Shown here: positions 1 to 19,569 of the stretch, piece after piece
Position numbering within the stretch: the first letter of the stretch is position 1
How the letters are laid out: each line of letters begins with the position of its first letter
Assembly (NCBI GenBank): GCA_965222065.1
Contig: OZ244933.1
Location: 1,447,680-1,511,679 of the forward strand
DNA length: 64,000 bases
Reading direction: 5' to 3'
From: Pseudomonadales bacterium
GTDB lineage: Bacteria; Pseudomonadota; Gammaproteobacteria; Pseudomonadales; GM7GCV1
Translations under genes and position numbers: made by a program
The notes under the pieces: model-generated
Databases searched by the model: none
What the model saw: the letters and a program-made list of their open reading frames with translations, nothing else
What the model was told of the DNA's origin: nothing

Positions 1-1320
<1,320 letters not shown>

Positions 1321-1369
1321 CAGATTTGAGGCATGCCTTTAACTAAAGGTGTGCCTCTCAGGAGGCAAT

Positions 1370-2251
1370 ATGCATTCTCATAAGCATTCCATAAGCTCGT
1401 CCCGGATAGGTTGGGCATTTTTTTTAAACTTGATATTTACCATTATTGAATTTATAGGCGGCTGGCTTACCAATAGTGTGTCGATTATGGCAGATGCGGT
1501 ACACGATCTCGGAGACACACTGTCCATCGGCAGTTCATGGATTTTGGATCGCGCTGGTAATAAACAGGCAGATTCTGAATATACCTATGGTTACCGCAGA
1601 CTTAGCCTTCTGGGAGCACTAATTAATGGAATAGTGCTGATTGCCGGATCAACATGGGTATTAATGGAAGCCGTTCCAAGATTATTTGATCCTGTACTTC
1701 CACATGTTGATGGCATGATTGGATTGGCAATACTCGGGGCATCAATAAACGGAATTGCCGCGTACAAGCTTAGTCATGGAAACACGTTAAATGAGAAGGT
1801 CTTGAACTGGCACCTTCTTGAAGATGTCCTTGGCTGGGTGGCCGTTCTCGTCGTAGCTATCACGATGAAATTCGTAGAGTGGCCTGTGCTTGACCCTGTC
1901 TTATCAATTGGTTTCACCTTATTCATTCTGGTCAATGTGACACGCAATCTTCGAGCAACCGCAAGAATGTTTTTTCAGGCCTCCCCAGACTCTAAATTGA
2001 TCCAGGAAATTCGTGAAAAATTACTAGGTGTAGACGATATAGAGGCGATACATCATTTGCATTTATGGTCACTGGATGGAGAGCGCCATGTTCTTACTAC
2101 CCACGCAACAGTGAGTAAATCAGTAAATGAAGTAAACTATGTTCAGCTTAAAGAAGCGCTACGCTCTGCTTTGGAACATTTCAATATCGAACACACCACT
2201 ATTGAAATCGAATCACCGGAAGAGATGTGTCGTGATGAGCCAATGGATTAG
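1370..2251 (+). CDS. czcD: Cation diffusion facilitator (CDF) family Co/Zn/Cd efflux transporter
   Basis: His-rich N-terminus (MHSHKHS), CDF signature region (SVSIMADAVHDLGD) and six predicted TM segments. AGGAGG sits 6 nt before the ATG at 1370, which is in frame with the listed ORF beginning at 1349. Confidence 0.8.
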   Translation: MHSHKHSISSSRIGWAFFLNLIFTIIEFIGGWLTNSVSIMADAVHDLGDTLSIGSSWILDRAGNKQADSEYTYGYRRLSLLGALINGIVLIAGSTWVLMEAVPRLFDPVLPHVDGMIGLAILGASINGIAAYKLSHGNTLNEKVLNWHLLEDVLGWVAVLVVAITMKFVEWPVLDPVLSIGFTLFILVNVTRNLRATARMFFQASPDSKLIQEIREKLLGVDDIEAIHHLHLWSLDGERHVLTTHATVSKSVNEVNYVQLKEALRSALEHFNIEHTTIEIESPEEMCRDEPMD

Positions 2252-2444
2252 CTACAACCAAATAACTAGCCAAAGCTAAAATTTATTTTAGCGGGGGCAT
2301 ATTTGGGGGCATAAATATAAATAGAATTTTAAATATCTATTTATATCAATAGGTTGAATAGCCTATTTGAGTGACCCCGCCCCATAAACTGTTATAATTG
2401 AATTTGTTCCTCCAACTCACTACCCTGTAGGGAGAAGGGAAAGA

Positions 2445-2777
2445 TCAAATTTTAGGATCCCAAGATTTAGGCTTACGCACCATATTGGCAAAACGGATTT
2501 TTAGCTCAGCTTCCGATAGATCGAAACCGCGCCGTTTTTCATCATCGGTAAAAGATTCCTTCCTCTTATCTGAAAATTTGGGGGTCACTGAAATTTCTTT
2601 CTTGGAAGTCATGGAAGAGTTTCTGATTTCATATTGAATACATAATACTCCTTCCTTGCCCCCCTTCAAGGAAGCCCCTGGCTCTCCCATACATGCAATC
2701 AAAGGCACCCTAGACACAAAAAAACCCGCAGATATCTCGGCGGGGCTTTTGGGCTTGCAGGATAGGTGGTCCATCAA
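2445..2777 (-). CDS. Hypothetical small protein (110 aa), downstream of the recombinase pair. Doubtful.
   Basis: ORF only. Its 5' end overlaps the predicted intrinsic terminator of the upstream operon (2718..2750). No recognisable motif. Confidence 0.2.
   Translation of the reverse strand: MMDHLSCKPKSPAEISAGFFVSRVPLIACMGEPGASLKGGKEGVLCIQYEIRNSSMTSKKEISVTPKFSDKRKESFTDDEKRRGFDLSEAELKIRFANMVRKPKSWDPKI
2718..2750 (-). terminator. Rho-independent terminator for the recombinase operon
   Basis: Read on the minus strand: GC-rich hairpin (CCCGC/GCGGG arms with a palindromic AGATATCT loop region) immediately followed by a run of 7 T (plus-strand A-run 2718-2724). Lies ~130 bp downstream of the stop at 2880. 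Confidence 0.6.
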
Positions 2778-2879
2778 GCAGATATGTGTCTAGCAACAAG
2801 CTAAATCTATAAACATAACCTGCTTATGTCAAATCTCGTTCACACGCCAAAAAACCAAAATTCTTAGGCGCGCTGAACT

Positions 2880-5800
2880 CTACTTTGCAACTTCATACAA
2901 AGGGGAAAGGCCGACGATCAAAAGCATCCACACGGCAAACCGCAACCCAGGTGAACCAGAACGCCTTTTTTTATCAATCAGCCGAACATTCAACTGACCA
3001 TGTACATTTCTGGAATATTTCTTTGTCTCTTGTGCCACCTCAATATCACTTTTGATGTAAGCGCTTAAATTTTTACGCCAGTATTTCTGTTGTTGCTGTT
3101 CAGTTTTTTTATCACCTAAAAACAGCCTCACTTTGATGTCCCAGCGATTAAAGCCAAGGTCAAAGAGTAATTTCAAAAACTCTTTCGCCTGAAAGGCATG
3201 GGAAAACTCAAACCACTCATTTCGTTTATATACCCTATCTATATAGAGAGAAATAAACGCGTCTCTTTTATCAGGATCTACCCGACCGAGAATGGCTGCA
3301 ACCCTGCGAGCATAGCGCTGGTCATCTTTTTTTCCTGGCATTCTTGGGACACATTTATAACCCCCATAGGTGTGATTAAAATTCTCTTGCCGAAATACCC
3401 TCGAGAACTTGGGGTCGGATACCAACTGCTCGCAGCGAGCCAAGTATTTCGTCAAACTGGCTTCATCAACGCCAGTTAATTGGTAAATTAGATCCGGGTG
3501 AGAATTCAAACCAACTCTCATATTCATGGCGCTCCAGACATCAAAAATATCAGGCTCTGCCGGAGTAATCCCAAGGTCCATTCCCTGCCGGTATAAATGC
3601 TCCATGGTCACCGGCCTGAGCTTACGCACCACCGGAAAACTTTGTGCCAAAGTGCGCCCCAAAAGCTCCGTACCTGACTTTTTTCGGTGATAGGCAGTCG
3701 AGGTTGAAATCAAACCCATTTTGGCAAGATCAACAGGGTCATACAGCTTCGACTGATAAATAAGCGCTGCCAAGAACCAATCCAGGCAATGGATGTAGTG
3801 CTCTAAAGACACATCGGGGCCAGAGTGGCCTATCATTTGGGAGACCAGATAATAATGCCGGCGGGTTGGCCCTGCGTTCTCATAGATCAATTGAGCGAAC
3901 TGCTTTGACTCCGACAAAAACTTTTTCGTCTCAGGAAGATGATCAAAGAATCTTAGACTGACGTCGTGATCCGCAATCATAAGCCTGGCTATCATCCAGG
4001 TGGCGGCAGAATGCCTGAGATGATGAAACCGAATATTGACCCGCTGAGTGACTTCACGCATGACTCGATGTAGCGGCTTAATAATTTCATCTTCTCTAAA
4101 ATCCTGCTTCCCAAATGCCGGCAGAGCAAACAGGTAGCCGTCATCGTCCTCACTTGATGAATTTTTTAGCTCCTGCTCCCTACTGTTTATCCAGTCACGC
4201 AACCCATCAAGTTCAGACTTAGGCAGCAGGGCATAAAGCGGTACATTGCGCTGGGAGTTACCCGTTTTAAGCGTACGAATTTTATTTTCACGAACGATGG
4301 CAAAAAGGTCACGCCCCCCGATGAGATCCTCAACTCGGAGGAACAAGACTTCTTTTCTGCGCATACCCGTTCGAAAACCAAGGATAAATACCAGCTTCAT
4401 GATTTTGATCAGTTCTTCACTTTGATTTTTAGCGAGCATCGTCTCCAAAGTTCCTAAAATAGCCTGATACTCATCCTCACAGATAATTTCGGCATCCACT
4501 GGTACAAGTTCATTTTGAAATTCAGACAACTCCTTTAAGCCGTAATCGCTCGTCATTCCTTTGCTTACCAAAAACTGCAAAAAGCTGTGCAAGAATCTAA
4601 GGTAATGGTTTCGAGTCATTCGACTTTTGGCTATTTCGGTCACACTACGAAAAATGGCCATCCAGTCCTCTGGTGAAAAATCATCACAATTCTGGTCAGA
4701 AACAAACTCCACTAATGCCGGGGCAACGGCATAGAGCATTTGCTGAAGGCTATTTGGCCTGGCATTGGCGCCAAGCCCATGCTTTCGATCAATAAGAAAT
4801 ATCTGCCATTGGGCAAGCAGTCGAACAATATGTGGCCGATCATAGGGCGCTTCTTTTTTAGATTTTGCGCCCGGGATTTTTGTACTTAGCCAATTTTCCA
4901 GCCTGGCTCGCAACTCCGCCTTTTCAGGTAATTTCGAGTAGCACCCATAAAGACTTTTTAGCGCAAGTCCCCCAAGATTAACGCCCTCTTCTTCATCAAA
5001 ATCCTCATATGAGTTTTTTAATTTCTCATCCAACGCCTCTTCCTGCACAGACTCTTCTTGCTGTACACCAAGCAAATATCGCCAGCATGGCTCCGTCAAA
5101 GAATGATTAATCGTTTTGCGGCTTGCGTAGTATGAGAACATTGAAGGAATTCGCAGATCCATCTCTGCTAACTGAGCAGCAACAAGCGCCGTAAAGTTTT
5201 TAAGCGATTTATCCAGCTCTACACCACGTGCAGTAATACTCGCCTTCATCAACCCAAATAGAACACGGGTAAGTGATGCGGAGTCAAAAACCCTGGTTAA
5301 ACAACCATCAATCTCTTTACCAAAAAATCCATTTTTTGCCTCTGAAAATTTCTGGATACTGGCCAATGTCATTGGATCAATAAGTATGCGTCTAAATTCT
5401 TGATCAGGTTTCCCTCTCCATGACAAATCCGTTGATATCCATACCACCGAATCATTGGCATAGATCTCATCGGTGATAATCGCACGCAATAGGGCTCGCA
5501 GCCCCCCAGAGCTGCAAACCCCCGAATAACAAAGCGCATTCAACAGCACGTCACCAACAATTTGCTTGGCGGTCGTTTGCCCAGGAGGCTCAATCATTAG
5601 CTTACGCACCCTGAAAAGGCTGTTCACTTTTGGCATATCCAGAGGAGTGCCATGCGGCGAAGGCTGAGGAAAATGCATGAGATATCCAGGATCAGACGCA
5701 AAACGCCAAAGATCCTTATCCTCCCCCTGCCGAACAACAAAAGTCAGAATGTTTATTAGCTCAACACTATCCTCTGTATCCTTTGCCGCATGCTTTATAA

Positions 5801-6026
5801 GGTCTTTAATCAAATTCCAGTCAGGATTTTTCACCAACCTGTTGGAAGGATTTTTGTCGGTCAGCTTTCTGAGCACATTGTTACTTTTAAAGTCTGCAGC
5901 CAGAACAATTGCCTTTAATCGCTCAAACCGCTCTCTGTGATGCTCTCGAAGTCCGGTATTCGGCCAATCCCAGATAGGGTTTAACTCCTTTTTGGGCTTA
6001 TTCTGATCCTCGGAGACATCCATCAT
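2880..6026 (-). CDS. Giant tyrosine recombinase (~1048 aa, or 1061 aa from the alternative start at 6065). A phage-integrase-type catalytic core is embedded between long N- and C-terminal extensions.
   Basis: The translation contains the canonical tyrosine-recombinase motif series. Box I Arg: LGFRTGMRRKEVLFLRVEDL (R565). Beta-hairpin Lys: ENKIRTLKTGNSQRNVPL. Box II: FHHLRHSAATWMIARL (H681/R684). Terminal motif: MIGHSGPDVSLEHYIH (H747, Y757). A core-binding-like region precedes them (RNHYLRFLHSFLQFLVSKG). The ATG at 6026 overlaps the upstream gene's TGA stop (ATGA) with AGGA 7 nt upstream. An alternative in-frame start lies at 6065. Confidence 0.85.
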   Translation of the reverse strand: MMDVSEDQNKPKKELNPIWDWPNTGLREHHRERFERLKAIVLAADFKSNNVLRKLTDKNPSNRLVKNPDWNLIKDLIKHAAKDTEDSVELINILTFVVRQGEDKDLWRFASDPGYLMHFPQPSPHGTPLDMPKVNSLFRVRKLMIEPPGQTTAKQIVGDVLLNALCYSGVCSSGGLRALLRAIITDEIYANDSVVWISTDLSWRGKPDQEFRRILIDPMTLASIQKFSEAKNGFFGKEIDGCLTRVFDSASLTRVLFGLMKASITARGVELDKSLKNFTALVAAQLAEMDLRIPSMFSYYASRKTINHSLTEPCWRYLLGVQQEESVQEEALDEKLKNSYEDFDEEEGVNLGGLALKSLYGCYSKLPEKAELRARLENWLSTKIPGAKSKKEAPYDRPHIVRLLAQWQIFLIDRKHGLGANARPNSLQQMLYAVAPALVEFVSDQNCDDFSPEDWMAIFRSVTEIAKSRMTRNHYLRFLHSFLQFLVSKGMTSDYGLKELSEFQNELVPVDAEIICEDEYQAILGTLETMLAKNQSEELIKIMKLVFILGFRTGMRRKEVLFLRVEDLIGGRDLFAIVRENKIRTLKTGNSQRNVPLYALLPKSELDGLRDWINSREQELKNSSSEDDDGYLFALPAFGKQDFREDEIIKPLHRVMREVTQRVNIRFHHLRHSAATWMIARLMIADHDVSLRFFDHLPETKKFLSESKQFAQLIYENAGPTRRHYYLVSQMIGHSGPDVSLEHYIHCLDWFLAALIYQSKLYDPVDLAKMGLISTSTAYHRKKSGTELLGRTLAQSFPVVRKLRPVTMEHLYRQGMDLGITPAEPDIFDVWSAMNMRVGLNSHPDLIYQLTGVDEASLTKYLARCEQLVSDPKFSRVFRQENFNHTYGGYKCVPRMPGKKDDQRYARRVAAILGRVDPDKRDAFISLYIDRVYKRNEWFEFSHAFQAKEFLKLLFDLGFNRWDIKVRLFLGDKKTEQQQQKYWRKNLSAYIKSDIEVAQETKKYSRNVHGQLNVRLIDKKRRSGSPGLRFAVWMLLIVGLSPLYEVAK

Positions 6027-8698
6027 CTTGTCCTGAATGGGCAATCTATAGGCCTCCACCCACACTCAAGGGAAAGTTCCTCTATTGCCTGAGTGATCGT
6101 TCTTCGATAGTCAAGAATAGGGAAACTCGAGTACTGCCCCCAAGGCTGCTGCCCCATTGACCAGTGCGACATGAATGCATTCACATATTCTGCTGGAACG
6201 CCTTTCATGCGTAACTCTGTTCTTAAAAATCGACGATTCGAATTGATTGCAAAATCGAAAAAGCCGGCGACTTGCTGCTCGGTCCGACTGGGAAAACTGG
6301 GGATTAAAACCAGTCCTATATTCGGGTCTCTATCCAAATAAAAGGGCTGACCGCTTTGCAGAATCCTCCTCTCTGCCCTGGTCATCCGCAACTCATCTAA
6401 AAAGCCAATCTCCTTAATCCTTGATCGATGAATATCCCAGTTCTCAAGTTGCCTCTTGAGCCCTTCATTAAGAGGGATATGTCGGGTATTAAAAAAGGAT
6501 TTTGGTTTCTTAACTATAACCTCTACTTGTCCATCAATACCGCTACCCTTTACCAACCCATCCTTGTCCGACAGAGCAAAAAAATCTCCTTGCCCATCCA
6601 TCCACTCGGCTCGCGGCAGTGGTTGATTCAACGCTCTGTAAGACGTTGTATAGGCGCTATACAAAACTGTGTAAGCAACAAAGTAATTATGCCGCTCAAT
6701 CCTATCTCTGATCTTTAAAGACTGATCCGGAGCTAATTCCGTGCTTTTAATTTTCTCCTGCAACGTCAAAACCATTTGACTAACAGCCTGAACTGTTGGG
6801 CACTGCTTTACCCCAACGGCCCCGGACATATTGTTTATCTTTACCTTTTTAACTTTTTTAGCCTTTACAGGCACAGGCCAATTCTCGTAGACACGCTCTA
6901 TCACTTTCTGAACAGTTGTTTCATAGGCACTTGCCAGATAGGCGACATCAGGACAATAGTAATGAAGCTGGTTGAATGCGTTAGGTAGTTTTCTACCGCA
7001 TATTAACGCCGCATCTGCAGAGTCACTGCCCTGCTTCAGGAGTTCATTTACCAAAAACCGACTTAGGTACGTACTTGATTTGGATATGAGTTTTCCATGA
7101 TTTTCTTTTATATCTTCCAAAGTATCTTCATAGCACTGTTTGTAGTCTTGCCTGTTCCAGCTTCCAAAAGGGTGCTGCATTTCAATTCGCTCACAGGTCT
7201 TCCTTAATTTCCGAAAATATTCTGAGAACCCAAAATAGTCAGGAAGGCGCATATATCCCGCCGCAGTACGCTCTTGATTTGGCAAAGCTGTTCGGTCCGC
7301 ATGGGAATCAGGTATCTGAACTGGAAAGCGCCAATAACTCACACCACCTTTTCTCAACAGCTGGATTACACCTTCCGATATGGAATCTTTTTGAGATTCA
7401 ACTATGCTCATGGCCTCTTCAGAAGTCCTCCCTAACCAAACCTGCATCATGGCAATCACTGCAAATTGAGCTGGCTTTAAAGAACGCTCTAAATTATCAA
7501 CTTCCTCTTCAGAAACATTATCTATGCTAGACCGCTGCTCTAAGGAATCAATTATCCGTTCTGTCTGTTTGATTGATTCTCTGAAACGGCGCCCTAAGGA
7601 CTCCATTAACAGAGCAATCTCCGGAATGATGAATTGATTAAAGGTAAACGGGAGCTCCTGATTGGCCATGAGCAAGTGCTTAAGTTGATATTTTGAACGC
7701 CACCCGCCTGCACGTTGCTCTTTTGAACTTGGGGTATCCAGTCCGACTTTATCAGCTTGTGTTTCGTAAGGGCTAACATCATCCGTGTCCGCCACTTCAA
7801 CTTCTTCCTCTTCTATCTCTACAGTAAAGACCTCATCATCCTCTTGGTCTATCTGCATGTCCCGTAAACGTGGCCCGCTGCCTACCAGGTTAAATGAATA
7901 TATCTGCCGCGTGACTCCCAAACCAAAATTATTTTTCTTTCCTCCCCCTCCACCTCCGGTGCGTTTACTACGCAATCCCCGCATTCTTAAAAGCGAATTT
8001 AAAATCTTTGCAAGATTATCCACATTTAACCTTTTAAATTGGACTAACTGCCATACGGTTAAAGTATTAAGATTCGTTATTTTATGAATGAAATCCGTCG
8101 GCGAATCCGACAAGATTTTAAGCTCTATACCTCGCCCGCCAGATGTATCGCTAAGAGTTCTCATTCCTCGATACATTTTACCCAAGAAATTTTTTTCTTT
8201 TACCGTCTTGTTTAGGCCATCCCAATCTTTGTAGGCACAAAGAAGATGCATTTGCAGAAAACGGAAGTTTTCGACAGCCCATTCCCAATCACCTACGTCG
8301 TGCATCACACATAACACAGTGTATAAAGGGTGCTCCCCCTGATAGTTATATGAGGGTATTTGATCTTCTCCCTTTTCGGTTCTTCCCTTAAAAGCTTGAG
8401 ACCACCAGTCTGGATCTATCCCTTCTGAATTTTTTTGTGACGTATCAGGGTTTGGGATACATGCACAAGCCTTGGCAACAGGGATAAATCTGGAAAGCCA
8501 CTTATATTCAGGCCAAGAATTCTTTTTAATCAGTTCCAGGCACTGTAAAAAGTTTTCTGAGACATCCACGATGGCCCCCAGCTTTGGAGGGGCATCGATA
8601 ATTTTCAAATACTCATGATAAATAGATTCGCTGACATCCTCCTTTATAAGCCCATATAGTTTTGGAATATCATCAGGAGTTTTTTTTGGCCTTGGCAT
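6023..8698 (-). CDS. Giant protein (891 aa) with a C-terminal tyrosine-recombinase-like domain and an internal Gly6/acidic low-complexity linker. First gene of the two-gene operon.
   Basis: C-terminal ~200 aa carry integrase-like motifs. Box I-like: TTSYRALNQPLPRAEWMD. Lys hairpin: VIVKKPKSFFNTRHIPLNEGLKRQLENW. Terminal motif: FMSHWSMGQQPWGQYSSF (H845...Y856, the canonical H-to-Y spacing of 11). Box II is degenerate. Contains RTGGGGGGKK and EDDEVFTVEIEEEEVEVADTDD linker segments. Confidence 0.75.
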   Translation of the reverse strand: MPRPKKTPDDIPKLYGLIKEDVSESIYHEYLKIIDAPPKLGAIVDVSENFLQCLELIKKNSWPEYKWLSRFIPVAKACACIPNPDTSQKNSEGIDPDWWSQAFKGRTEKGEDQIPSYNYQGEHPLYTVLCVMHDVGDWEWAVENFRFLQMHLLCAYKDWDGLNKTVKEKNFLGKMYRGMRTLSDTSGGRGIELKILSDSPTDFIHKITNLNTLTVWQLVQFKRLNVDNLAKILNSLLRMRGLRSKRTGGGGGGKKNNFGLGVTRQIYSFNLVGSGPRLRDMQIDQEDDEVFTVEIEEEEVEVADTDDVSPYETQADKVGLDTPSSKEQRAGGWRSKYQLKHLLMANQELPFTFNQFIIPEIALLMESLGRRFRESIKQTERIIDSLEQRSSIDNVSEEEVDNLERSLKPAQFAVIAMMQVWLGRTSEEAMSIVESQKDSISEGVIQLLRKGGVSYWRFPVQIPDSHADRTALPNQERTAAGYMRLPDYFGFSEYFRKLRKTCERIEMQHPFGSWNRQDYKQCYEDTLEDIKENHGKLISKSSTYLSRFLVNELLKQGSDSADAALICGRKLPNAFNQLHYYCPDVAYLASAYETTVQKVIERVYENWPVPVKAKKVKKVKINNMSGAVGVKQCPTVQAVSQMVLTLQEKIKSTELAPDQSLKIRDRIERHNYFVAYTVLYSAYTTSYRALNQPLPRAEWMDGQGDFFALSDKDGLVKGSGIDGQVEVIVKKPKSFFNTRHIPLNEGLKRQLENWDIHRSRIKEIGFLDELRMTRAERRILQSGQPFYLDRDPNIGLVLIPSFPSRTEQQVAGFFDFAINSNRRFLRTELRMKGVPAEYVNAFMSHWSMGQQPWGQYSSFPILDYRRTITQAIEELSLECGWRPIDCPFRTR

Positions 8699-9011
8699 GA
8701 AAAAATTTCCCTATATTTGCTTCAAGAACATCATTAACGATAGAATAATATCGAATTATAATAATATATTATTTTCCAATTGAGCCCAAAATTTTATATC
8801 TTAGATTGTTTTAAATGATTTAAATATTTTTAAAATAATCTGAAAAATCCCTTTATTTATAGGTTTTAAAGGCGATTTATATCAATTAATATAAATTAAA
8901 ATTAAACATGGTGTAATGTTCATAATGGGGGTCGGTGGTTCAAGAATTCCCTTTTAGATTCAACAGGATATAGTTCCTTCCCCCACTTTTTAAATCCTGT
9001 ACAAGCTATAG

Positions 9012-9692
9012 CTAAAAAAGCCCGTAAGCGAGATATGCTTCCTTGGGATCCATTCCTTGTAATATGGCTTTACGAACCAAATTTTCAGTGTTCATAACCT
9101 CCTCTACACGCTCCACTGTAGATTGGGCCTCTTCGGATGGAATAATTACCACCCCGTCCAGGTCGCCAAAAACGTAATCCCCGTTACTGATATCCACATC
9201 CCCAATTTTTATGTCTTCACCAAAACTGTCAGGGACCCAAGTGCCAACAACATCTCTTGGCGATTTATATCTGGCAAAAACCGGAAAACCCAGATTCAGG
9301 ATAAATTCAGAATCCCTGGTACCTCCGTCAACGACGTATCCATTCACACCTTTAAAATGCAGCGTTTCCGCAGAAAGCTCGCCCATATGAGCGATCGTGT
9401 GATCGTTAGGCTGACAAACGACAACACTCCCGGCGGGGGCCCTGGATAAAAAATCCGTCCAGCGAAGCAAGGTTTCATGGGGATCCAGATCCGGATCAAG
9501 ATGGCCACGAACAGTAAACGCTTCGCCTGCCATTTTTTTTGACGGGTCCAAAGGCGCTATCCCTGGAGGCAGGACACACCTGGTTATGCCTTTTTCACGC
9601 AGCGCGTCGTATACGGCGCCAGAATAACAATTCATTAAACGCCTGGTTATATCGCTGGTCATTAGCCTCCCTAATACTCGGAAATTCTCCAA
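9012..9692 (-). CDS. RraA family protein (ribonuclease E inhibitor RraA / demethylmenaquinone methyltransferase-like fold)
   Basis: 226-aa ORF with RraA-like composition (GD..V.D..GVVIIP, GTRDS). First gene after the AT-rich island border. Confidence 0.6.
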   Translation of the reverse strand: MENFRVLGRLMTSDITRRLMNCYSGAVYDALREKGITRCVLPPGIAPLDPSKKMAGEAFTVRGHLDPDLDPHETLLRWTDFLSRAPAGSVVVCQPNDHTIAHMGELSAETLHFKGVNGYVVDGGTRDSEFILNLGFPVFARYKSPRDVVGTWVPDSFGEDIKIGDVDISNGDYVFGDLDGVVIIPSEEAQSTVERVEEVMNTENLVRKAILQGMDPKEAYLAYGLF

Positions 9693-9752
9693 AACGATAC
9701 CGGCAATACGGCCAGTATGATTTTGGTTACATCGCTTTAAAAATTTTGCTGA

Positions 9753-10931
9753 TTATCTGCACCGGGCATTTTCCGGATTCGCGACCCAGACAATGGCATC
9801 TTTAAACAAGGCTGAATAATCCGGGTTCGCGTAAACTTCAGGCAAGTGACCTATTGCGGTGTATAGCGCACGACCATCACCCACACAATTCGACCAGATA
9901 ATGGGGTGATCCTTACCCATCGCCAATCTCGGGGGCACTACCTCATAAGTAGATTCGTCCAAATTGGCTATCACATTGACACCATTGGAACGCGGGCTCG
10001 ATTCGAAGGAATACCATTCTTCCCGCAATGTCCAGCCTGGCATTTGCTGCTGGCCTATTCCACCTGCGGTAGGCTCAATGGCAACATATGCTTCCTGAAA
10101 CTGCTGCTCTCCTACGGGGTGACCTATTGCGCGGGCATCACCCAGCAATACTTCCTTGTACCAGGGCCAAATATCAAACCAGTAATTTCCAGCAGCGTGG
10201 ATTCCCAGGTAACCACCGCCCCCGGTAATATAATCCCTGTAAGCCTCACGCTGACTTAGTGTAAGTGCATCACCAAAGTTGTTATTCCAGATAACCAGGT
10301 CAAACTGGTCAAGTGTTTCGGGATTAAAAACAGCGGCGGAGTTTGTCACCACGACTCCCCAACCAAGCTGGCTAGCAATATTTCGGATTGCCTCGGTAGC
10401 GGCAGCGACGACAGACCCATGATGAAAACCAACCACCTTGTTAAATACCAGGATTCGGTGTTCCGTTTCAGGAATAGTCAGCTCAGGCAACTCAATATCA
10501 TAGTTGGCACAGCGTGCCTTGCGATCCATGTCAGTGATATTGAGCAAAGCAAGTGCACGATTGATCTCTTCTTGCTGAGACTCTGAAATCTCATGACTGC
10601 GGGCCACCATACGCACGGACCGGGTCAAGCTGTAGGTCGACCTTATCTCGGCAGTTGGTGGCTCAATGCGCTTGTCGTCGTCGGGCAAACTATCCAGAAA
10701 TCCCGGCAAATGTTCATTAACTACCTCTTTGGCATTTTGACTTACCAGAACATGAAAAAAAGGGGAATCAAGAGAAAACGGTGTATCTCTTAAGGGGCAA
10801 TCTGCTATTTGGGTTTCTTCAGCATGCAGGTTTTGAATAAGGCCTGTAAATACCAATAGGCAGGCTGTCAGTAAAAACCTGACAGGACAAGATTCAAAAG
10901 CATATGGAATATTTTTATTATTGGATTTCAA
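9753..10931 (-). CDS. Secreted ThuA-like (trehalose-utilisation, class I glutamine-amidotransferase-like) domain protein
   Basis: N-terminal signal peptide. Motifs GGGGYLGIHAAGN and DHPIIWSNCVGDGRALYTAIGH match the ThuA domain. Paralogous to the ORF at 15318..16196. Confidence 0.6.
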   Translation of the reverse strand: MKSNNKNIPYAFESCPVRFLLTACLLVFTGLIQNLHAEETQIADCPLRDTPFSLDSPFFHVLVSQNAKEVVNEHLPGFLDSLPDDDKRIEPPTAEIRSTYSLTRSVRMVARSHEISESQQEEINRALALLNITDMDRKARCANYDIELPELTIPETEHRILVFNKVVGFHHGSVVAAATEAIRNIASQLGWGVVVTNSAAVFNPETLDQFDLVIWNNNFGDALTLSQREAYRDYITGGGGYLGIHAAGNYWFDIWPWYKEVLLGDARAIGHPVGEQQFQEAYVAIEPTAGGIGQQQMPGWTLREEWYSFESSPRSNGVNVIANLDESTYEVVPPRLAMGKDHPIIWSNCVGDGRALYTAIGHLPEVYANPDYSALFKDAIVWVANPENARCR

Positions 10932-11055
10932 TGTTTCCCCCAGGCTCAGTCTCTAATGACATAAGCTATTATGTTTATACTGTTGCAGCTTAATATAGTT
11001 TCAATGAAAAACCACAACTAAGCCATCTCTCTTAAACCAATAAATAAACAGCAAA

Positions 11056-11823
11056 ATGACGAACCTTCCCAGGACACCCAGCTTTGCACTTAAGGGTCAG
11101 CGCGCACTGGTCACAGGCGCGAGCCGCGGAATTGGCCTGGCCTCAGCTGCTGCCCTGGCACAGGCTGGGGCGGAAGTTACGCTGGTTGCTCGTAGTGAAA
11201 ATGAAATTCAGCAGGCCGCTGAAGCGATTAATACTTCGGGCGGAATTGCCCATTTTGAGTCTCTGGATGTGTCCAGTCTGGACAGCGTCAGTGAGTTTTT
11301 TGCCGGGCGCCCTGCGTTCGATATCCTGGTAAACAATGCGGGTACCAATCGCCCCAAACCATTAATTGAAGTCACTGAAGATGACTACGAAGCCGTGCTG
11401 GATCTCAACCTGAAAAGTGCCATCTTTGTCAGCCAGGCATGCGCCAGGCAAATGCTTCATGAACAGGTAAGCGGCTCGATCATCCACATCAGTTCCCAAC
11501 TAGGGCATGTGGGCAGCCCGAACCGTTCCCTGTATTGTGCCTCCAAGTGGGGACTGGAGGGCTTTAGCAAGGCACTGGCGCTGGAGCTGGCGCCACACGG
11601 CATTCGCAGCAATACGATCTGTCCCACCTATATCGAAACACCCCTGACCCAGCCCTACTTTGAAGACAAGGCATTTCTCGAAAGTGTGTTGAAAAACATT
11701 AAACTTGGCCGACTGGGCCAGGTGGAAGACCTGATGGGCCCTGTAGTATTTCTCGCCTCCGAGGCATCTGCCCTGATGACTGGCAGCAGTATGATGCTCG
11801 ATGGCGGCTGGACGGCCGAATAA
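11056..11823 (+). CDS. SDR family short-chain dehydrogenase/reductase
   Basis: TGASRGIG Rossmann motif, NNAG motif, and the catalytic S...Y..K (SSQ...YCASK). Confidence 0.85.
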   Translation: MTNLPRTPSFALKGQRALVTGASRGIGLASAAALAQAGAEVTLVARSENEIQQAAEAINTSGGIAHFESLDVSSLDSVSEFFAGRPAFDILVNNAGTNRPKPLIEVTEDDYEAVLDLNLKSAIFVSQACARQMLHEQVSGSIIHISSQLGHVGSPNRSLYCASKWGLEGFSKALALELAPHGIRSNTICPTYIETPLTQPYFEDKAFLESVLKNIKLGRLGQVEDLMGPVVFLASEASALMTGSSMMLDGGWTAE

Positions 11824-11845
11824 TCCTAAACCGGAACAAATGTAG

Positions 11846-13069
11846 ATGAACGACTATTTCAATAGAAAGTTACCCGACGTCGAGTCCCTCAGACAGCATG
11901 CCAAAAAACGCATTCCCAAATTTGCGTTCGAATATCTGGAAAATGGCTGTAACGAAGAAGTCGGGCTCGATCGAAATCGCACCGCGATTCAGTCTGTTCA
12001 GCTACGCAGCCGTTTGCTTCAACCTTCTACCAAAAGCGACCCCGCTACAGAGATTTTTGGTCATACCTACAGTGCACCTTTTGGTATTGCCCCGATTGGT
12101 TTGCAGGGCCTGGTCTGGCCAAAGGCACCGGAAATCCTGGCGCGTGCCGCAAAAGATTTAAATGTCCCCTACATTCTTAGCACGGTTTCATCAGCCGGAC
12201 TGGAGCAGATCGCGGAAATTTCCGAAGGGCACGCCTGGTACCAGCTTTACAACCCGACCGACCCGGAAATCCGGCAGGACCTGCTGCAAAGAGTCCAGTC
12301 GGCCGGATATAAAGTGCTTGTGGTGACCGTGGACGTACCGACGTTTGGTTTTCGCCCAAGGGATATGAAAAACGGCCTGTCCATGCCGCCTAAAATGACA
12401 CTAAAGAATGTCCTGCAAATGGCCTCATGCCCCCAATGGCTCTGGGAAACAGCAAAAGCCGGCAAACCGGAAATGCAAACCTTGAAACCCTACATGTCGC
12501 CAGACATGCCGGTCCATGAACTTATGGATTTTATGAACAAGACCGTGATGGGGCCCGTCGACATCGAAGGACTGAAGCCGCTTCGTGATTTCTGGCAAGG
12601 ACCACTGGTCATCAAGGGATTGATCAATGAAGAAGATGTAAAAGACGCCATCCGCCTGGGTGCAGATGCCGTCGTGATCTCCAATCACGGCGCACGTCAG
12701 TTGGATAATGGTGAAGCAGCGGTAGAACCCCTGAAACGCATTTCCAGAAAATACAATAAAGACCTGAAAATCTTTATGGATGGGGGGCTGAGGACAGGTT
12801 CAAACATTGCCGCTGCACTCGCCTGCGGTGCCGATTTCACCTTCCTTGGTCGCCCCTTTGTATACGGAGTGGGCGCCCTGGGCGACAAGGGTGGCGTGCA
12901 TACCATTAACAGTCTGCGTATCCAGCTGGAACAGGTGATGAACCAGCTGGGCTGTGCGTCTGTAAAAGATCTGCCGAACTTCCTGGTGGAAGAGCCCAAC
13001 ACGCATGACGAGCTGTGGAATTCATACCGGCAACTGTCAGAAACACTGACCAGTCATTTTCGACTTTGA
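11846..13069 (+). CDS. FMN-dependent alpha-hydroxy-acid dehydrogenase (L-lactate dehydrogenase / glycolate oxidase family)
   Basis: SNHGARQLD motif and the overall TIM-barrel FMN-dehydrogenase pattern. Confidence 0.8.
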   Translation: MNDYFNRKLPDVESLRQHAKKRIPKFAFEYLENGCNEEVGLDRNRTAIQSVQLRSRLLQPSTKSDPATEIFGHTYSAPFGIAPIGLQGLVWPKAPEILARAAKDLNVPYILSTVSSAGLEQIAEISEGHAWYQLYNPTDPEIRQDLLQRVQSAGYKVLVVTVDVPTFGFRPRDMKNGLSMPPKMTLKNVLQMASCPQWLWETAKAGKPEMQTLKPYMSPDMPVHELMDFMNKTVMGPVDIEGLKPLRDFWQGPLVIKGLINEEDVKDAIRLGADAVVISNHGARQLDNGEAAVEPLKRISRKYNKDLKIFMDGGLRTGSNIAAALACGADFTFLGRPFVYGVGALGDKGGVHTINSLRIQLEQVMNQLGCASVKDLPNFLVEEPNTHDELWNSYRQLSETLTSHFRL

Positions 13070-13086
13070 CTCCGGTCTAAAAAGTC

Positions 13087-14856
13087 TTAGTCCACCGTAA
13101 TATCGCGGCTTGCGGGCATGCGGATGTCATCCACCATGTTGCCGATTTCACGAGGCGTCGGCGCGGTAAATCGGGCAACCGTGGTGGCCACCGCAAAGTT
13201 CACCAGCATGCCAATGGCGCCAATGCCCTCTGGTGAGATCCCCAGGAACCAGTGCTCACTGGCATTGAGCTCTGGCGCAATAAACTTGTAGAACACAATA
13301 TAGCCAAAGGCCACCAGAAAACCGGAGACCATGCCGGCAATCGCACCCTCACGGTTCATCCACTTAAAGAAGATGCCCATAAAGATCGCCGGGAACAGGC
13401 TGGCCGCCGCCAACCCAAAGGCAAAGGCCACCACCTGGGCAACAAACCCCGGCGGATTGATCCCAAAGTAACCGGCAATCAAGATCGCCACGGTGGCCGC
13501 CATGCGCGCATACGTCAGCTCTTGTTTGTCGGTAATCGACGGCATCAGGGTCTTCTTCATCAGATCATGAGAGACCGCGGTGGAAATCACTAGCAACAAC
13601 CCGGCGGCTGTCGATAGCGCCGCAGCGACCGCACCGGCCGCTACCAGGGCAATCACCCATTTGGGCAACTGGGCAATCTCGGGATTGGCCAACACGATAG
13701 TATCCCGGTCGACATAGACTTCATTGGCATTGGCGGTCATCTCGTTGGTAATGACCCGTTCCCCCTGCAGACCCCGCTCTTCCGTAAACTCGGGCAGCCC
13801 CTCAAAGGGCGCACCGGGGGCATACTGGATTGTCCCGTCGTCGTTCTTGTCATTCCAGGCATACAAGCCCACATTTTCCCAGGTCTTGAACCAGGCGGGC
13901 ACATCGCTGTAGGGCGTCTCATGAATGGTGTCGATAAAGTTGATGCGGGCAAAGGCCGCCACGCTGGGAGCGGTCGTATACAGCAGGGCAATAAATAACA
14001 AGGCATAGCCTGCCGATTTGCGCGCATCCGAAACTCTGGGCACGGTAAAAAAGCGCACAATCACATGCGGAAGGCCGGCCGTACCGACCATCAGGGCCAT
14101 GGTAATGGCCAGTACATCAATGGTCGCTCTCTGGCCCTGGGTATAGGCCGCAAAACCCAGATCCATCAGAGTACTATCCAGCTTCTCCAATACCGTCATG
14201 CCACTACCATCTGTGACGGTAGACCCTAGGCCCAATTGGGGGATGGGGTTACCGGTGATCAATATGGAGATGAACACCGCCGGGACAAAATAGGCAAACA
14301 TCAGCACACAGTATTGGGCCACCTGGGTATAGGTAATACCTTTCATGCCGCCCATCACGGCATAGAAAAACACGATGCCCATGCCGATGATGACACCGGT
14401 ATTAATGTCCACCTCCAAAAAGCGGGAGAACACAATACCCACACCGCGCATCTGCCCGGCAATGTAAGTGAAAGAGATAAAGATCAGGCAGACCACAGCG
14501 ACCAGCCTGGCGGTTCGGGAATAGTAACGTTCACCAATAAAGTCCGGCACGGTGAACTGCCCAAATTTCCTCAGGTAGGGGGCCAGCAACAGGGCCAGCA
14601 ACACAAAGCCCCCGGTCCAGCCCATCAGATAGACCGACCCGTCATACCCCAGAAAAGCGATGAGTCCGGCCATGGAGATAAACGAGGCCGCACTCATCCA
14701 GTCAGCTGCGGTGGCCATGCCGTTTAAAACGGGCGGAACACCACCCCCGGCAACATAAAACTCACTGGTGGAACCGGCACGGGACCAGATGGCAATACCG
14801 ATATACAGGGCAAAGGACAGCCCGACAAACAGATAACTCAGCGTTTGTGCATCCAT
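13087..14856 (-). CDS. Sodium:solute symporter family transporter (ActP-like cation/acetate symporter)
   Basis: 589 aa, ~13 TM helices, SSS-family composition. Preceded by a DUF4212-type small membrane protein, the arrangement seen for actP/yjcH-like pairs. Confidence 0.8.
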   Translation of the reverse strand: MDAQTLSYLFVGLSFALYIGIAIWSRAGSTSEFYVAGGGVPPVLNGMATAADWMSAASFISMAGLIAFLGYDGSVYLMGWTGGFVLLALLLAPYLRKFGQFTVPDFIGERYYSRTARLVAVVCLIFISFTYIAGQMRGVGIVFSRFLEVDINTGVIIGMGIVFFYAVMGGMKGITYTQVAQYCVLMFAYFVPAVFISILITGNPIPQLGLGSTVTDGSGMTVLEKLDSTLMDLGFAAYTQGQRATIDVLAITMALMVGTAGLPHVIVRFFTVPRVSDARKSAGYALLFIALLYTTAPSVAAFARINFIDTIHETPYSDVPAWFKTWENVGLYAWNDKNDDGTIQYAPGAPFEGLPEFTEERGLQGERVITNEMTANANEVYVDRDTIVLANPEIAQLPKWVIALVAAGAVAAALSTAAGLLLVISTAVSHDLMKKTLMPSITDKQELTYARMAATVAILIAGYFGINPPGFVAQVVAFAFGLAAASLFPAIFMGIFFKWMNREGAIAGMVSGFLVAFGYIVFYKFIAPELNASEHWFLGISPEGIGAIGMLVNFAVATTVARFTAPTPREIGNMVDDIRMPASRDITVD

Positions 14857-14858
14857 GC

Positions 14859-15206
14859 TTATTCCTCTTCGTCATCATCGACGTGGAAACGATCTTCCAG
14901 CCGTCCCATCAGATGGGAATAAACAAAAATGAGTATGACAAAGCAAATAATGGAGCCCTGCTGGGCAAACCAGAATCCCAGCGGGAAGCCGAAGAACGTA
15001 ATCTGGTTGAGCACATCGACAAACAATATGCTGCAACCAAAGGACACCAGCGCCCAAATGCTTAAAAGGATAGCCAGCAAGCGGAGATTGGCCTTCCAGT
15101 AGGCATCAATAATTTCATGATCTATGGCAGGCTGTTCGCGCTCGCCGTGTTTGGGCAGGTTGCCTCCCTCGTGGTGGTACCTGTGCTCGTTCTTGTTAGT
15201 TTCCAC
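14859..15206 (-). CDS. DUF4212 small membrane protein, the solute-symporter accessory subunit (YjcH-like)
   Basis: 115-aa protein with two TM helices and an acidic C-terminus. Sits immediately upstream of, and presumably co-transcribed with, the SSS transporter. Confidence 0.65.
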   Translation of the reverse strand: METNKNEHRYHHEGGNLPKHGEREQPAIDHEIIDAYWKANLRLLAILLSIWALVSFGCSILFVDVLNQITFFGFPLGFWFAQQGSIICFVILIFVYSHLMGRLEDRFHVDDDEEE

Positions 15207-15317
15207 GGATTCCCCTCCAGAATATTGACGGGCATTAATGGCTTTTATTTTTTATCCAGTCTGCATATAAACCCAAAGCAAAGGCTGACACAAATTCAGA
15301 CCGACTCCATTTGAAAT

Positions 15318-16196
15318 TTATTCCGACTCTTCTGCCACACAAAATGGGTTGCGACCCATTGCGCTCTCTATGCCACCAAGAATGTGGGCCAGATAATGTT
15401 CGTTTCTAAAAATCTCCTCACTGTGCCCAAGGGTCGTCAGCCAGGCCCGCCCACCATCATAGTAGTGGCACCAACTGACCGGGTGCGGCCCTTCATAGGT
15501 TCCCGGATGCCCAAAAAAACCTTTCGTGCTGTCTCTTGTCGAATCATCGACTTCCAGTAGCAGACGGACATTACCTGTCTCAAGCGGGTTGGGGTGAACG
15601 TTGTACCACTCATCTTCCAGCACAAATCGGGATGGCAGTTCTTGTGTCGAAGTATCGTTGCTGTTTGACACTACCGCTGTTCCTTCCATAAAGGGAGCAT
15701 GATCATAGAGCTGCGTGTTGCCCAAAAGGCCCCGAAACCATTCCCAGTTGAATTGGGTGCCAAACACGTTATGGATACCCACAAATCCACCGCCGCCTTG
15801 CATGTATAGCCGCAAGGCACGTTTCTCGGCACTGTTCATCACGTCGCGCTGGGTATTAAAGAAAATTACAGCATTAAATGTATTCAGTTGTCCGGGGTTG
15901 GAAAGTAGCGTTTCATCAGTGGCCACCTTAATGGCATGTTCATTGAGAAGGGCAATCAACTGTTCTGTGGCGTAGGGCGTGTTCTCGTGGGGTGAGCCAT
16001 CCTCACCAATGCGGCTGAAAAGCAGCACCTTGTAACCTTCCTCCGCCGGGTTTCTCATACCCCAATCGCTATAGCAGCCGGGCTGCGTGCCACTGCATGG
16101 TTCAGAGCTTGTGTGCTGCGCCTGTCCTGTAATTGCCATACACATCAGGAAAACCAGTAGCGACAGGGTTTTTAAAATTGCCGTTAAATATCTCAT
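15318..16196 (-). CDS. Secreted ThuA-like domain protein, paralog of the 9753..10931 gene
   Basis: Signal peptide. Motifs GGGGFVGIHN and HPVSWCHYYDGGRAWLTTLGH parallel those of the other ThuA-like ORF. Confidence 0.6.
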   Translation of the reverse strand: MRYLTAILKTLSLLVFLMCMAITGQAQHTSSEPCSGTQPGCYSDWGMRNPAEEGYKVLLFSRIGEDGSPHENTPYATEQLIALLNEHAIKVATDETLLSNPGQLNTFNAVIFFNTQRDVMNSAEKRALRLYMQGGGGFVGIHNVFGTQFNWEWFRGLLGNTQLYDHAPFMEGTAVVSNSNDTSTQELPSRFVLEDEWYNVHPNPLETGNVRLLLEVDDSTRDSTKGFFGHPGTYEGPHPVSWCHYYDGGRAWLTTLGHSEEIFRNEHYLAHILGGIESAMGRNPFCVAEESE

Positions 16197-16345
16197 GTTG
16201 CTGATTGTCCAAAGCTCAAACGATCAAAATACCCCGCCATTTCCTGCTGGAAAATTCACTTTTCGGTCAGGGCGCAAGTACAGTACTCTACCACCGGATC
16301 CGGATAAACATCCGGACTTCTCTCCGGGGGACAGAGGAAAAAATA

Positions 16346-17899
16346 ATGCCAGGTCCAAACCCAATTCGCCGACGCAGCTTTCTTAAACTTTCCGGTTCCG
16401 GTCTTCTTGCTCCTGCCGGCATCGCTGCACCTTCCATCAGTATGGCCGCCGATCGACCACAAGCAAATATGGGCTGTAGTAGCGGAGACGTCACCAGTTC
16501 GGGCGCCATCATCTGGACACGGACGGACCGGCCTTCCCAGCTAAAGGTGGCTGTATCCGAAGATCCGGACTTCCGAAATAACCAGCAGTTTTACGGAGGG
16601 TTTGGTCTCTCCGAAAATGATTTTAATACCAAGGCAGCGATCAATGGGCTAAAGCCTGACACCCAATATTTTTACCGCCTGGAGTGCGAGAGCCTTGAAT
16701 CTCCGGGATTATTCGGTGAACCGGTTTATGGCAGCTTTCGCAGTGCCGCCAGCTCTCCGCAAAAAGCCATCCGATTCTGCTGGTCGGGCGATACCGCCGG
16801 CCAGGGCTGGGGAATTGATCGCAACCGTGGCGGCATGAAAATTTACCAGGCTATGCTCAGCCAACAACCGGATTTTTTCGTTCATAGCGGCGACCAGATT
16901 TATGCCGATGGCCCCATGAATGAAACGGTCACACTCGACGATGGATCCCTCTGGAGAAACGAACTTATCGAAGCCAAAACCCGTGTTGCCGAATCCACCC
17001 AAGACTTTCGCGAAAACTATTACTACAACTTTCTGGATGACCATGTAAAACGCTTTCATGCCCAGGTACCGGTTTACAATCAATGGGATGATCATGAAGT
17101 CGTGAATAACTGGTATCCGGGTGAATTACTGACAGACGACAGGTACTCCGTAAAAAGTGCATCCCTGTTGGCTGTCCGCTCCCGCAGGGCCATGTTCGAA
17201 TGCAACCCTATTGCCAACAACCGCCATCATCCCGAGCGTATTTATCGAAAAGTCTCTCACGGGCCCTTTCTCGAATTATTCTTCCTTGATTTGCGATCCT
17301 ATCGCGGGCCGAATTCACGCAATCGGCAAGCGCAAAAAAGTGCCGAAACGGCTTTTATGGGGGATCCACAATTGCAGTGGTTAAAGCAGGCGCTGACGGA
17401 GTCCACCGCCACCTGGAAAATCATCTGCTCGGACATGCCCATCGGGCTCATCGTGCCGGACGGACCAGAAAACTTTGAAAATGGCGCCAACGGAGATGGT
17501 CCACCCCTGGGACGCGAGCAGGAAATTGCCGATTTGCTGGGCTACATACACCAGCAAGAAATTGCCAATGTCCACTTTATTACAGCCGATGTTCATTACT
17601 GCGCTTCCCATTACTACTCGCCGGAAAAGGCCGTGTTTAAAAATTTCACCCCTTTCTGGGAATTTGTCAGTGGACCAATGCATGCCGGTACGTTTGGCCC
17701 TGGCCAACTGGATAACACCTTTGGACCTGATGAAGTATTTCGGGGTATCCCGGAGGGCATGGCGCCCAATCGACCGCCGTCAGAGGGGTTTCAGTTTTAT
17801 GGCCTGGTGGATATTAACCCGGATGACCAGTCGATGACCGTCACGCACCTAAACGCCGAAAACGAGGTTCTTTGGCAGAAAACTTTACTTCCAAAGTGA
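16346..17899 (+). CDS. phoD: Alkaline phosphatase/phosphodiesterase, PhoD family, with a Tat signal
   Basis: Twin-arginine motif RRRSFLKLSG after the ATG at 16346 (GAGGAAAAAATA then ATG). PhoD-like metallophosphatase motifs (GDQIYAD, NQWDDHEV). The upstream in-frame extension from 16205 lacks an RBS and would bury the Tat signal. Confidence 0.75.
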   Translation: MPGPNPIRRRSFLKLSGSGLLAPAGIAAPSISMAADRPQANMGCSSGDVTSSGAIIWTRTDRPSQLKVAVSEDPDFRNNQQFYGGFGLSENDFNTKAAINGLKPDTQYFYRLECESLESPGLFGEPVYGSFRSAASSPQKAIRFCWSGDTAGQGWGIDRNRGGMKIYQAMLSQQPDFFVHSGDQIYADGPMNETVTLDDGSLWRNELIEAKTRVAESTQDFRENYYYNFLDDHVKRFHAQVPVYNQWDDHEVVNNWYPGELLTDDRYSVKSASLLAVRSRRAMFECNPIANNRHHPERIYRKVSHGPFLELFFLDLRSYRGPNSRNRQAQKSAETAFMGDPQLQWLKQALTESTATWKIICSDMPIGLIVPDGPENFENGANGDGPPLGREQEIADLLGYIHQQEIANVHFITADVHYCASHYYSPEKAVFKNFTPFWEFVSGPMHAGTFGPGQLDNTFGPDEVFRGIPEGMAPNRPPSEGFQFYGLVDINPDDQSMTVTHLNAENEVLWQKTLLPK

Positions 17900-17928
17900 T
17901 AGCATCCGGCTGATTTACTTGGATCAAA

Positions 17929-19083: not shown

Positions 19084-19087
19084 TTCC

Positions 19088-19507: not shown

Positions 19508-19569
19508 ATATTCCTCACGTTTACCTTTAAAAAGAAGCCAGCGAATTACTGCGCCGGGCTCACCTGTGC

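Follow-up and report, generated by a model that had tools for sequence, protein, structure and literature searches.

What are two very large, overlapping genes doing at the extreme edge of a low-GC genomic island, and could they form a recombination system of their own? The question is raised by a 64,000-nt stretch of a Pseudomonadales bacterium (GM7GCV1; assembly GCA_965222065.1, contig OZ244933.1, positions 1,447,680 to 1,511,679), hereafter called the window, in which two genes designated P1 and P2 follow each other on the minus strand. Genomic islands are vehicles for the spread of genes for resistance, metal tolerance, and virulence, and the mobility mechanism of many such islands is unexplained. 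To our knowledge, only SE and GInt have been partly worked out, both recently, among the multi-protein tyrosine-recombinase modules that contain a recombinase-fold partner. In present annotation, one gene of the P1-P2 pair is termed "hypothetical" and the other merely "integrase". Here, we infer, with a probability of about one half, that P1-P2 is a heteromeric site-specific recombination module of low-GC proteobacterial genomic islands.

A first-pass annotation, made from the sequence alone, had described two co-directional and translationally coupled genes for giant proteins, each with a phage-integrase catalytic core, within an AT-rich accessory island. The gene arrangement stands. The longest open reading frame (ORF) of P2 spans 2880..6065 (1061 aa from a GTG), and both its homologues and the public gene calls place the start at the ATG at 6026 or 6023 (1048 or 1047 aa), so that the P1 stop and the P2 start share an ATGA (Table 1). 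The composition also agrees with the earlier description, the guanine-cytosine (GC) fraction being 0.432 in 2281-8912 and 0.448 in 1-2280 versus 0.518 in 8913-20000. As for the catalytic cores, the claim holds in full for P2 and in part for P1.

P2 appears to be the enzyme of the pair. The family PF00589 matches residues 517-680 of its 1048 (E 1.5e-11; 44.8 bits vs. a cut-off of 27.1), scores above cut-off in all 24 P2 family members, and is the sole Pfam family detected in any of them. In an alignment of 24 homologues sharing 17-54% identity, R556, K587, H668, R671, H672, H734, and Y744 are invariant. The Pfam match and the invariant catalytic residues together identify P2, at the sequence level, as a catalytically complete tyrosine recombinase with an R-K-H-R-H-Y active site. 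NCBIfam Xer models align to it from approximately residue 440, with scores for the equivalogs TIGR02224/TIGR02225 of 35.9 and 34.5 bits vs. cut-offs of 335 and 330; PHROG integrase families also match, and a P2 profile retrieved exclusively Xer and integrase catalytic domains from the PDB sequences (archaeal XerC-like 4a8e, E 1.6e-7). The N-terminal ~440 and C-terminal ~290 residues, whose extent is close to that estimated in the first-pass annotation for the large non-catalytic regions, gave no match in Pfam scans of the 24 homologues or in PDB profile searches. At the C-terminal tip, the hydrophobic sequence PGLRFAVWMLLIVGL (residues ~1026-1040, ~2907-2951, minus strand) shows an A-x-RF...M...L-G pattern that is kept family-wide, and, as read from its sequence, it may be an amphipathic or membrane-associating tail. 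In addition, positions 524-811 of phrog_33072, a 1066-position profile with no annotation, match P2 residues 493-773 in the 1061-aa numbering (E 5e-8); despite this match, no record in the phage collection matches P2 by tblastn.

P1 is the diverged partner. It matches nothing in Pfam, NCBIfam, PHROGs, or PADLOC, a profile built from 60 P1 sequences found no match among PDB sequences, and hhalign comparisons of the P1 and P2 profiles were not significant (E 0.1-0.2), with one weak alignment (E 0.11) placing the Arg-I and Lys motifs of the two proteins in register. An AlphaFold2 (AF2) model of P1 based on the 60-sequence alignment has a predicted local distance difference test score (pLDDT) of 80.8 and a predicted template modelling score (pTM) of 0.79, and its structural-comparison figures are 13.5 with an archaeal XerC-like protein, 13.2 with an S. 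aureus integrase, 9.8 with Lambda Int, 8.4 with Flp, and 8.2 with Cre. Foldseek searches of the model against the PDB and viral models agree with a recombinase fold, with weak E-values. In this predicted structure, P1 has the catalytic-domain fold of tyrosine recombinases, and the relationship is evident from structure only. The core proposed earlier for both proteins is thus detected by PF00589 in P2, whereas in P1 it is invisible to hidden Markov models (HMMs) and emerges from the fold search that the first-pass annotation had suggested, with a nucleophilic Tyr that is not conserved. From its N-terminus, P1 runs through helical domains, a disordered linker rich in Gly and acidic residues (~248-292), and the recombinase-like C-terminal part. 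Within the linker (residues 248-292, ~7823-7957, minus strand), a GGGGGG run is followed by an acidic stretch modelled with low confidence, and the Gly-rich motif is kept in many members.

The active-site residues of P1 are unevenly preserved. R688, K712, R822, and H845 are found in 60/60 P1 sequences and R826 and W846 in 57/60, whereas the expected nucleophile position (WGxY856SS), assigned because of motif order and spacing, is Tyr in 35/60, Phe in 18/60, and His in 5/60. A larger sample gave a similar picture (Tyr 58/112, Phe 38/112, and His 13/112), and the next candidate, Y864, is conserved in just 35/60; the P1 of the window carries Tyr at both 856 and 864. As far as the alignment can tell, P1 seems to retain the phosphate-binding Arg-Lys-Arg-His pocket without selection to keep a nucleophilic Tyr of its own. 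Because it is HMM-invisible and its nucleophilic Tyr is unconserved, P1 is better named a recombinase-fold partner than a second recombinase.

The pair is a widespread and conserved module and no rarity of this genome. An exhaustive HMMER search of 1.84 billion representatives revealed 916 P1 clusters (50% identity) at E<=1e-3 and 414 at E<=1e-10, mostly 800-900 aa long and mostly from marine and acidophilic Proteobacteria. A scan of one genome per species yielded 37 P1 loci, the main hosts of which are Gammaproteobacteria (Vreelandella/Halomonas, Marinobacter, Oceanospirillaceae, and Solimonas) and Acidithiobacillus, along with a few Betaproteobacteria and unclassified proteobacterial genomes. 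Complete genomes with the pair include those of Vreelandella aquamarina (NZ_CP085232), Halomonas sp. H2 (NZ_CP189760), and Acidithiobacillus montserratensis (NZ_CP127526). With three metagenomic or assembly contigs added, 40 loci were available, and a P2 homologue lies directly after P1 in approximately 35 of them, which is essentially all where the contig permits; the pairing that the first-pass annotation had proposed to examine among homologues is therefore general. Across loci, the P2 frame opens no later than the P1 stop, and the usual overlap is 4 nt. One 1923-aa protein (P0100) matches P1 over 408-815 and the P2 profile over 892-1918 (E 1.3e-92), with PF00589 at 1373-1516, and is either a natural P1-P2 fusion or possibly a read-through gene call.

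Other searches delimit this distribution. No near-identical DNA was found in E. coli genomes and plasmids, word-indexed protein searches returned just same-species copies and one relative of 51-54% identity, to which the 60-sequence alignment added none, and an initial metagenome scan with P1 gave no match. Phage, plasmid, and IMG/VR collections held no relatives of P1 or of full-length P2, and tblastn of P1 against 72,556 plasmids, including the SE-bearing pSC138, gave no match. No description of the P1-P2 family was found in the literature, the coverage of which was incomplete, so that novelty is not proven. A further 1104-aa ORF in one locus (L036, 1-3315) has two weak matches, one to the C-terminal region of P1 (E 4e-9) and one to the integrase region of P2 (E 5.5e-7), and may, on this basis, be a second, more distant large recombinase.

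In the window, P1-P2 sits at the extreme edge of the low-GC island, where it abuts a tRNA fragment on the P1 side, and the island continues to the left beyond window position 1; exact-protein look-ups of P2 and of the CDF product, made to extend the sequence on that side, returned no record. The fragment lies between P1 and a core RraA-like gene and marks the island edge, with GC stepping from 0.43 in the P1-side flank to 0.52 in core DNA at 8919-8944. A related metagenomic contig (L043), whose RraA-like protein is 90% identical, has a longer copy at 4960-5010 that ends in ...GGTTCAAGTCCACCCGTAGCTACCA and represents a tRNA 3' half, with a CAT anticodon loop, T arm, and CCA end; its final 25 nt are missing from both the window and L003, a contig of the same species. 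ARAGORN reported no complete tRNA at the remnant site, and Rfam identified no known RNA in the window, its tRNA model giving no score to the fragments. In sequence, the fragment at 8919-8944 seems to resemble elongator tRNA-Met and has the appearance of an island attachment site, within a tRNA gene, that has decayed. In L043, the position of P1-P2 is taken by a gene with the Fic motif HPFLDGNGRIGR (5283-6428), so that different island ends occupy one tRNA-associated site. Loci with a closely related RraA-like gene but no P1-P2 carry other DNA at this position, and no clean empty site was obtained.

On the other side of the pair, the cargo varies between strains. L003 is 99.3% identical to the window over 2281-18697 and has the same P1-P2 pair, and the strain homology breaks sharply at window position 2281, corresponding to L003 16419 and L002 5077, with strain-specific cargo starting approximately 600 nt past P2. 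Beyond the break, L002 and L003 have AraC, TonB-receptor, glyoxalase, and lactate-dehydrogenase genes (38.8% GC), whereas the window has the CDF and RND genes (44.8% GC) that the first-pass annotation had correctly noticed as metal-efflux cargo; both versions are low in GC and therefore foreign. The 54% identical pair in L001 likewise has other genes downstream. Short GGGGGCAT / ATGCCCCC repeats occur at the breakpoint (window 2282-2300), where they are direct, and in L003 (16385-16445) an inverted copy of the GGGGGCAT / ATGCCCCC repeat is added past the break.

Other genomes show further contexts of the pair. A P4-like integrase adjoins P1-P2 within a few kb in 26 loci. In Halomonas and Marinobacter, the block reads c3, P1, P2, and then, on the opposite strand, c5, c4, and an integrase of 420-450 aa (Arm-DNA-bind_2 and PF00589); between species, DNA similarity stops approximately 60 nt past the integrase start, which places one end of the shared element at the integrase. 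The order in Acidithiobacillus is tRNA-Arg(CCG), a gene for 219-253 aa, integrase, TraI_2/HD-domain protein, P1, and P2. From these contexts, it follows that P1-P2 is a core or near-core part of integrase-bearing genomic islands. Because a P4-like integrase is nearby in most other genomes, P1-P2 need not be the only integration machinery of the island.

Several further proteins recur in these islands. The c3/c8 protein (170-250 aa), encoded directly 5' of P1 in Halomonas, Marinobacter, and Oceanospirillaceae loci (e.g., L013 8130-8639 and L004 8527-9096) and not in the window, has no Pfam match, shows a ParB-N-like stretch by eye (...YICVGNFRSLELARRL...), and may be a third module component. 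In Halomonas-type loci, the c5 (~101 aa) and c4 (~106 aa) genes are invariably placed between P2 and the P4-like integrase (L013 14412-15007), and neither has a family match. In islands of Acidithiobacillus, Aquimonas, and Solimonas, a TraI_2/HD protein of approximately 310 aa, similar to a fragment of a MobH relaxase, adjoins the integrase and P1-P2, which hints that the islands with this protein are mobilisable.

The first-pass annotation had found no obvious counterpart among known multi-recombinase modules, and this was borne out for GInt and SE by hhalign (E. coli Sakai ginABCD and pSC138) and for Tn554 and RIT by gene content, Tn554 not having been compared by sequence. Close parallels exist with SE (strand-biased circularizing integrative elements; intA-tfp-intB-srap; Idola et al. 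2023, PMC10214605), in which the recombinase-fold protein Tfp (562-822 aa), whose catalytic ability is uncertain, is encoded directly 5' of the large recombinase IntB with overlapping genes, the hosts are gammaproteobacterial and in many cases marine, GC is low, and the recombinase operon occupies one end with variable cargo, possibly including efflux genes, behind it. However, P1 and P2 show no significant hhalign match to Tfp and IntB of pSC138 (E 0.2-0.4) and are longer (891/1048 aa vs. 616/663 aa; the four SE genes of pSC138 encode 509, 616, 663, and 146 aa). Neither the window nor most loci have an intA 5' of P1, no conserved srap-like gene follows P2, and Tfp carries its recombinase fold in the middle, P1 at the C-terminal end. 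Moreover, Tfp is reported to lack RHRY (PMC10214605), whereas P1 retains R, K, R, and H, with variation confined to Y. SE are further characterised by attL x attR recombination into a circle with strand bias and by the terminal motifs C and C'.

GInt (ginABCD; Bardaji et al. 2017, PMC5385486) is also a multi-protein module, one member of which, GinC, is recombinase-like but has an incomplete active site, and the GInt operon lies at the island end by the attachment (att) site, with strain-variable cargo straight after the operon and AT-rich ends. It differs in its gene set, in which ginD accompanies three integrase-like genes that InterPro integrase models recognise; the products are of ordinary size (401, 437, 543, and 132 aa in E. 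coli Sakai). The P1-P2 operon, by contrast, has two recombinase-fold genes, with no third in the operon or on that flank of the pair which falls inside the window. The P1 and P2 profiles had hhalign E-values of 0.1-0.6 with ECs_3510/ECs_3511 (GinB/GinC) of E. coli Sakai, the single GInt compared, and GinC is reported to lack the first Arg (PMC5385486), whereas P1 keeps all but a fixed Tyr.

Other systems also bear comparison. RIT (recombinase in trio) elements have three adjacent tyrosine-recombinase genes of ordinary size, in contrast to two of 891 and 1048 aa here. XerC and XerD are two distinct recombinase-fold subunits acting on one site, and the best NCBIfam alignments of P2 are with Xer models; however, P2 falls approximately tenfold below the Xer family cut-offs (36 vs. 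335 bits), and the Xer proteins are ~300 aa long, both catalytic, and chromosomal housekeeping enzymes whose genes are not adjacent. Tn554 (tnpA, tnpB, and tnpC) has two adjacent tyrosine-recombinase genes, one ordinary and the other larger, which are jointly needed for site-specific transposition without a DDE enzyme. Its recombinases, of ~360 and 630 aa, are much smaller than P1 and P2. Unlike P1-P2, Tn554 occurs in Firmicutes, its set includes the small TnpC, which has no conserved small-ORF counterpart after P2, and TnpA and TnpB both have RHRY (PMC10214605), whereas the P1 family lacks a conserved Y. Thus, P1-P2 belongs to no named family compared and is best placed among the multi-protein tyrosine-recombinase modules of genomic islands of the SE/GInt/Tn554 kind, to which it adds a third, very large family, with no detectable sequence similarity to the SE and GInt proteins compared.

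Both SE and GInt need a recombinase-fold protein without catalytic residues in addition to true recombinases (PMC10214605, PMC5385486), and a similar division of labour can be envisaged for P1-P2. P2 would perform the chemistry, and the co-translated P1 would assist it structurally and by binding DNA, with a pocket that might or might not join in catalysis. The two proteins would most likely assemble into a hetero-oligomer on island DNA, in the manner proposed for XerC/XerD, SE Tfp/IntB, and GInt GinC/GinB, and would carry out site-specific strand exchange there, in integration and excision or, alternatively, in rearrangement or cargo exchange at the island end. P1-P2 is probably new machinery for moving or rearranging genomic islands. 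Its recognition would sharpen island delimitation, as here, where the pair marks the end of an RND/CDF metal-efflux island.

Several points weigh against this proposal. The ordinary integrase present in most loci could do all the integration, so there is no obvious need for P1-P2. We found no recombination product, empty site, or excised circle for the module, and no conserved terminal-repeat pair was established across loci. Neither fold nor function is assigned to approximately 60% of each protein, and the pair might have another activity. The interaction between P1 and P2 is suggested by gene order and by a single fusion that might be a gene-calling or frameshift artefact, and, given the decayed tRNA fragment beside P1, the copy in the window may be a fossil. 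A bolder version, which we consider unlikely and which draws on analogy, is that P1 and P2 would work only together, as a heteromeric recombinase whose active site they share: P1 would bring the Arg-Lys-Arg-His pocket, usually with no nucleophile, P2 would donate its Tyr in trans as in Flp, and the large extra domains would select targets. The P1 pocket without an obligatory Tyr of its own has the look of a subunit receiving the nucleophile from its partner, although this likeness to Flp is purely an analogy and Flp is a homotetramer of identical subunits. If true, such an enzyme would represent an unrecognised and widespread class of island mobility or cargo exchange, distinct from SE, GInt, Tn554, and RIT; in any case, the P1 pocket with its missing nucleophile poses a testable question about the labour division in heteromeric tyrosine recombinases.

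The repeats around the pair raise a different possibility. Exactly two copies of the 12-mer ATTTATATCAAT exist in the 64 kb, both in one orientation (2339-2350 and 8875-8886), and they bracket exactly the segment common to strains. The first lies within a perfect 11-N10-11 inverted repeat at 2315-2346 (ATATAAATAGA-N10-TCTATTTATAT), and the second forms an imperfect palindrome with 8885-8896. Going by sequence, the copies may be candidate sites of protein action or ends of a nested element, and they are offered as a lead only. Under the latter reading, the 6.6-kb segment 2281-8912 (P1, P2, and a small ORF) would be a self-contained, ATTTATATCAAT-bounded element of the Tn554/SE type that is nested at an older tRNA-island end and moves by its own two proteins without an ordinary integrase. 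The ATTTATATCAAT copies are indeed 33 nt from the tRNA fragment and ~60 nt from the 2281 breakpoint, each overlapping or adjoining an inverted repeat such as recombinase core sites have; exactly 2281-8912 is shared by strains with differing adjacent cargo, the L001 pair has different downstream genes, relatives of the RraA-like flank without the pair exist, and the smallest known SE is a cargo-free 6.35 kb (PMC10214605). However, the repeats lie in intergenic DNA of ~25% GC, so that shuffles of the whole window greatly understate the chance of a 12-nt AT-only match, and the inverted repeat at 2315-2346 carries 3 changes in L003 and is not kept there. An empty site was not recovered; L043 has a different island end at that position rather than a clean empty site. 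Elsewhere, the pair is embedded among c3/c8, c4, c5, and the integrase and does not stand alone. We therefore regard a nested element as unlikely.

A role in conflict rather than in mobility, with P1-P2 as island cargo that targets the DNA of a phage or rival element or serves island maintenance or exclusion, would be in line with its integrase-proximal position, where defence genes often cluster, with the bulk of both proteins lacking assigned domains, with the ordinary integrase already present in most loci, and with the Fic-motif gene at the equivalent island end of L043. The first-pass annotation had also considered a defence-associated system, an idea that found no meaningful PADLOC match: the sole hit, to CARF_TM, covered 163 residues of P2 (E 8e-4). 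Among 24 P2 and 7 P1 homologues, none showed a nuclease, ATPase, or sensor domain, no homologues occur in the phage or plasmid collections, and the complete, invariant recombinase active site points to break-and-rejoin chemistry and not to destruction, which makes a defensive or competitive role quite improbable. Finally, the recombinase-fold repressors MrpR (SPbeta) and SroF (phi3T) exemplify a route from recombinase to regulator, and the pair might be a domesticated or decaying relic that now only regulates island genes by binding DNA, as the unconserved nucleophile of P1 and the decayed att-like tRNA fragment beside the window copy might be taken to indicate. In a pure DNA binder, however, an active site that is invariant among P2 homologues of 17-24% identity would be unexpected, the pocket residues of P1 are invariant too, and the family is large, with full-length and intact members, so that we see very little room for this explanation.

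Table 1. Features of the P1-P2 locus, in window coordinates unless a contig is named
Feature	Position	Strand	Details
RND (ACR_tran) transporter, C-terminal part	52-1320	+	E 1.7e-131
CDF cation-efflux gene	1349-2251	+	
Strain-specific cargo	1..2280	+	RND C-terminal part and CDF gene
AT-rich site, inner module boundary	2311..2350		perfect 11-nt inverted repeat and 12-mer; 30 nt from the 2281 break
Candidate AT-rich repeats	2311-2350 and 8864-8906		
Small ORF downstream of P2	2445..2690	minus	81 aa, basic; called in L002 and L003; after the hairpin 2718-2747
Candidate operon terminator	2718..2747	minus	GC-rich hairpin and T run; 130 nt past the P2 stop; read from sequence
P2 gene	2880..6026	minus	large tyrosine recombinase; 1048 aa (public gene calls: 1047)
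P2 catalytic domain	3777..4478	minus	residues ~517-750: R556, K587, H668, R671, H734, Y744
ATGA, P1 stop/P2 start overlap	6023..6026	minus	translational coupling; at least 16 other loci overlap likewise (4 nt or 1 nt)
P1 gene	6023..8698	minus	891 aa, ATG start; from the ORF listing
P1 catalytic-domain-like region	6059..6793	minus	residues ~636-880: R688, K712, R822/R826, H845/W846, Y856
Leader 5' of P1, AT-rich	8699..8918		holds second ATTTATATCAAT copy (8875-8886)
tRNA 3'-half remnant	8919..8944	+	TTCATAATGGGGGTCGGTGGTTCAAG; anticodon loop to T arm; last 25 nt deleted
TraI_2/HD protein	L030 7321-8262		also in L029, L031, L033, L036

Downstream of P2, no small ORF is conserved across loci, a protein similar to Srap, GinD, or TnpC having been sought. 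The 81-aa ORF of the window matches no family and lacks conservation among the other P1-P2 loci, which makes its standing as a gene doubtful. The hairpin that precedes it was not listed by a simple terminator scan, the limit of which its loop exceeds; as read from the sequence, it is likely the terminator of the P2 operon.

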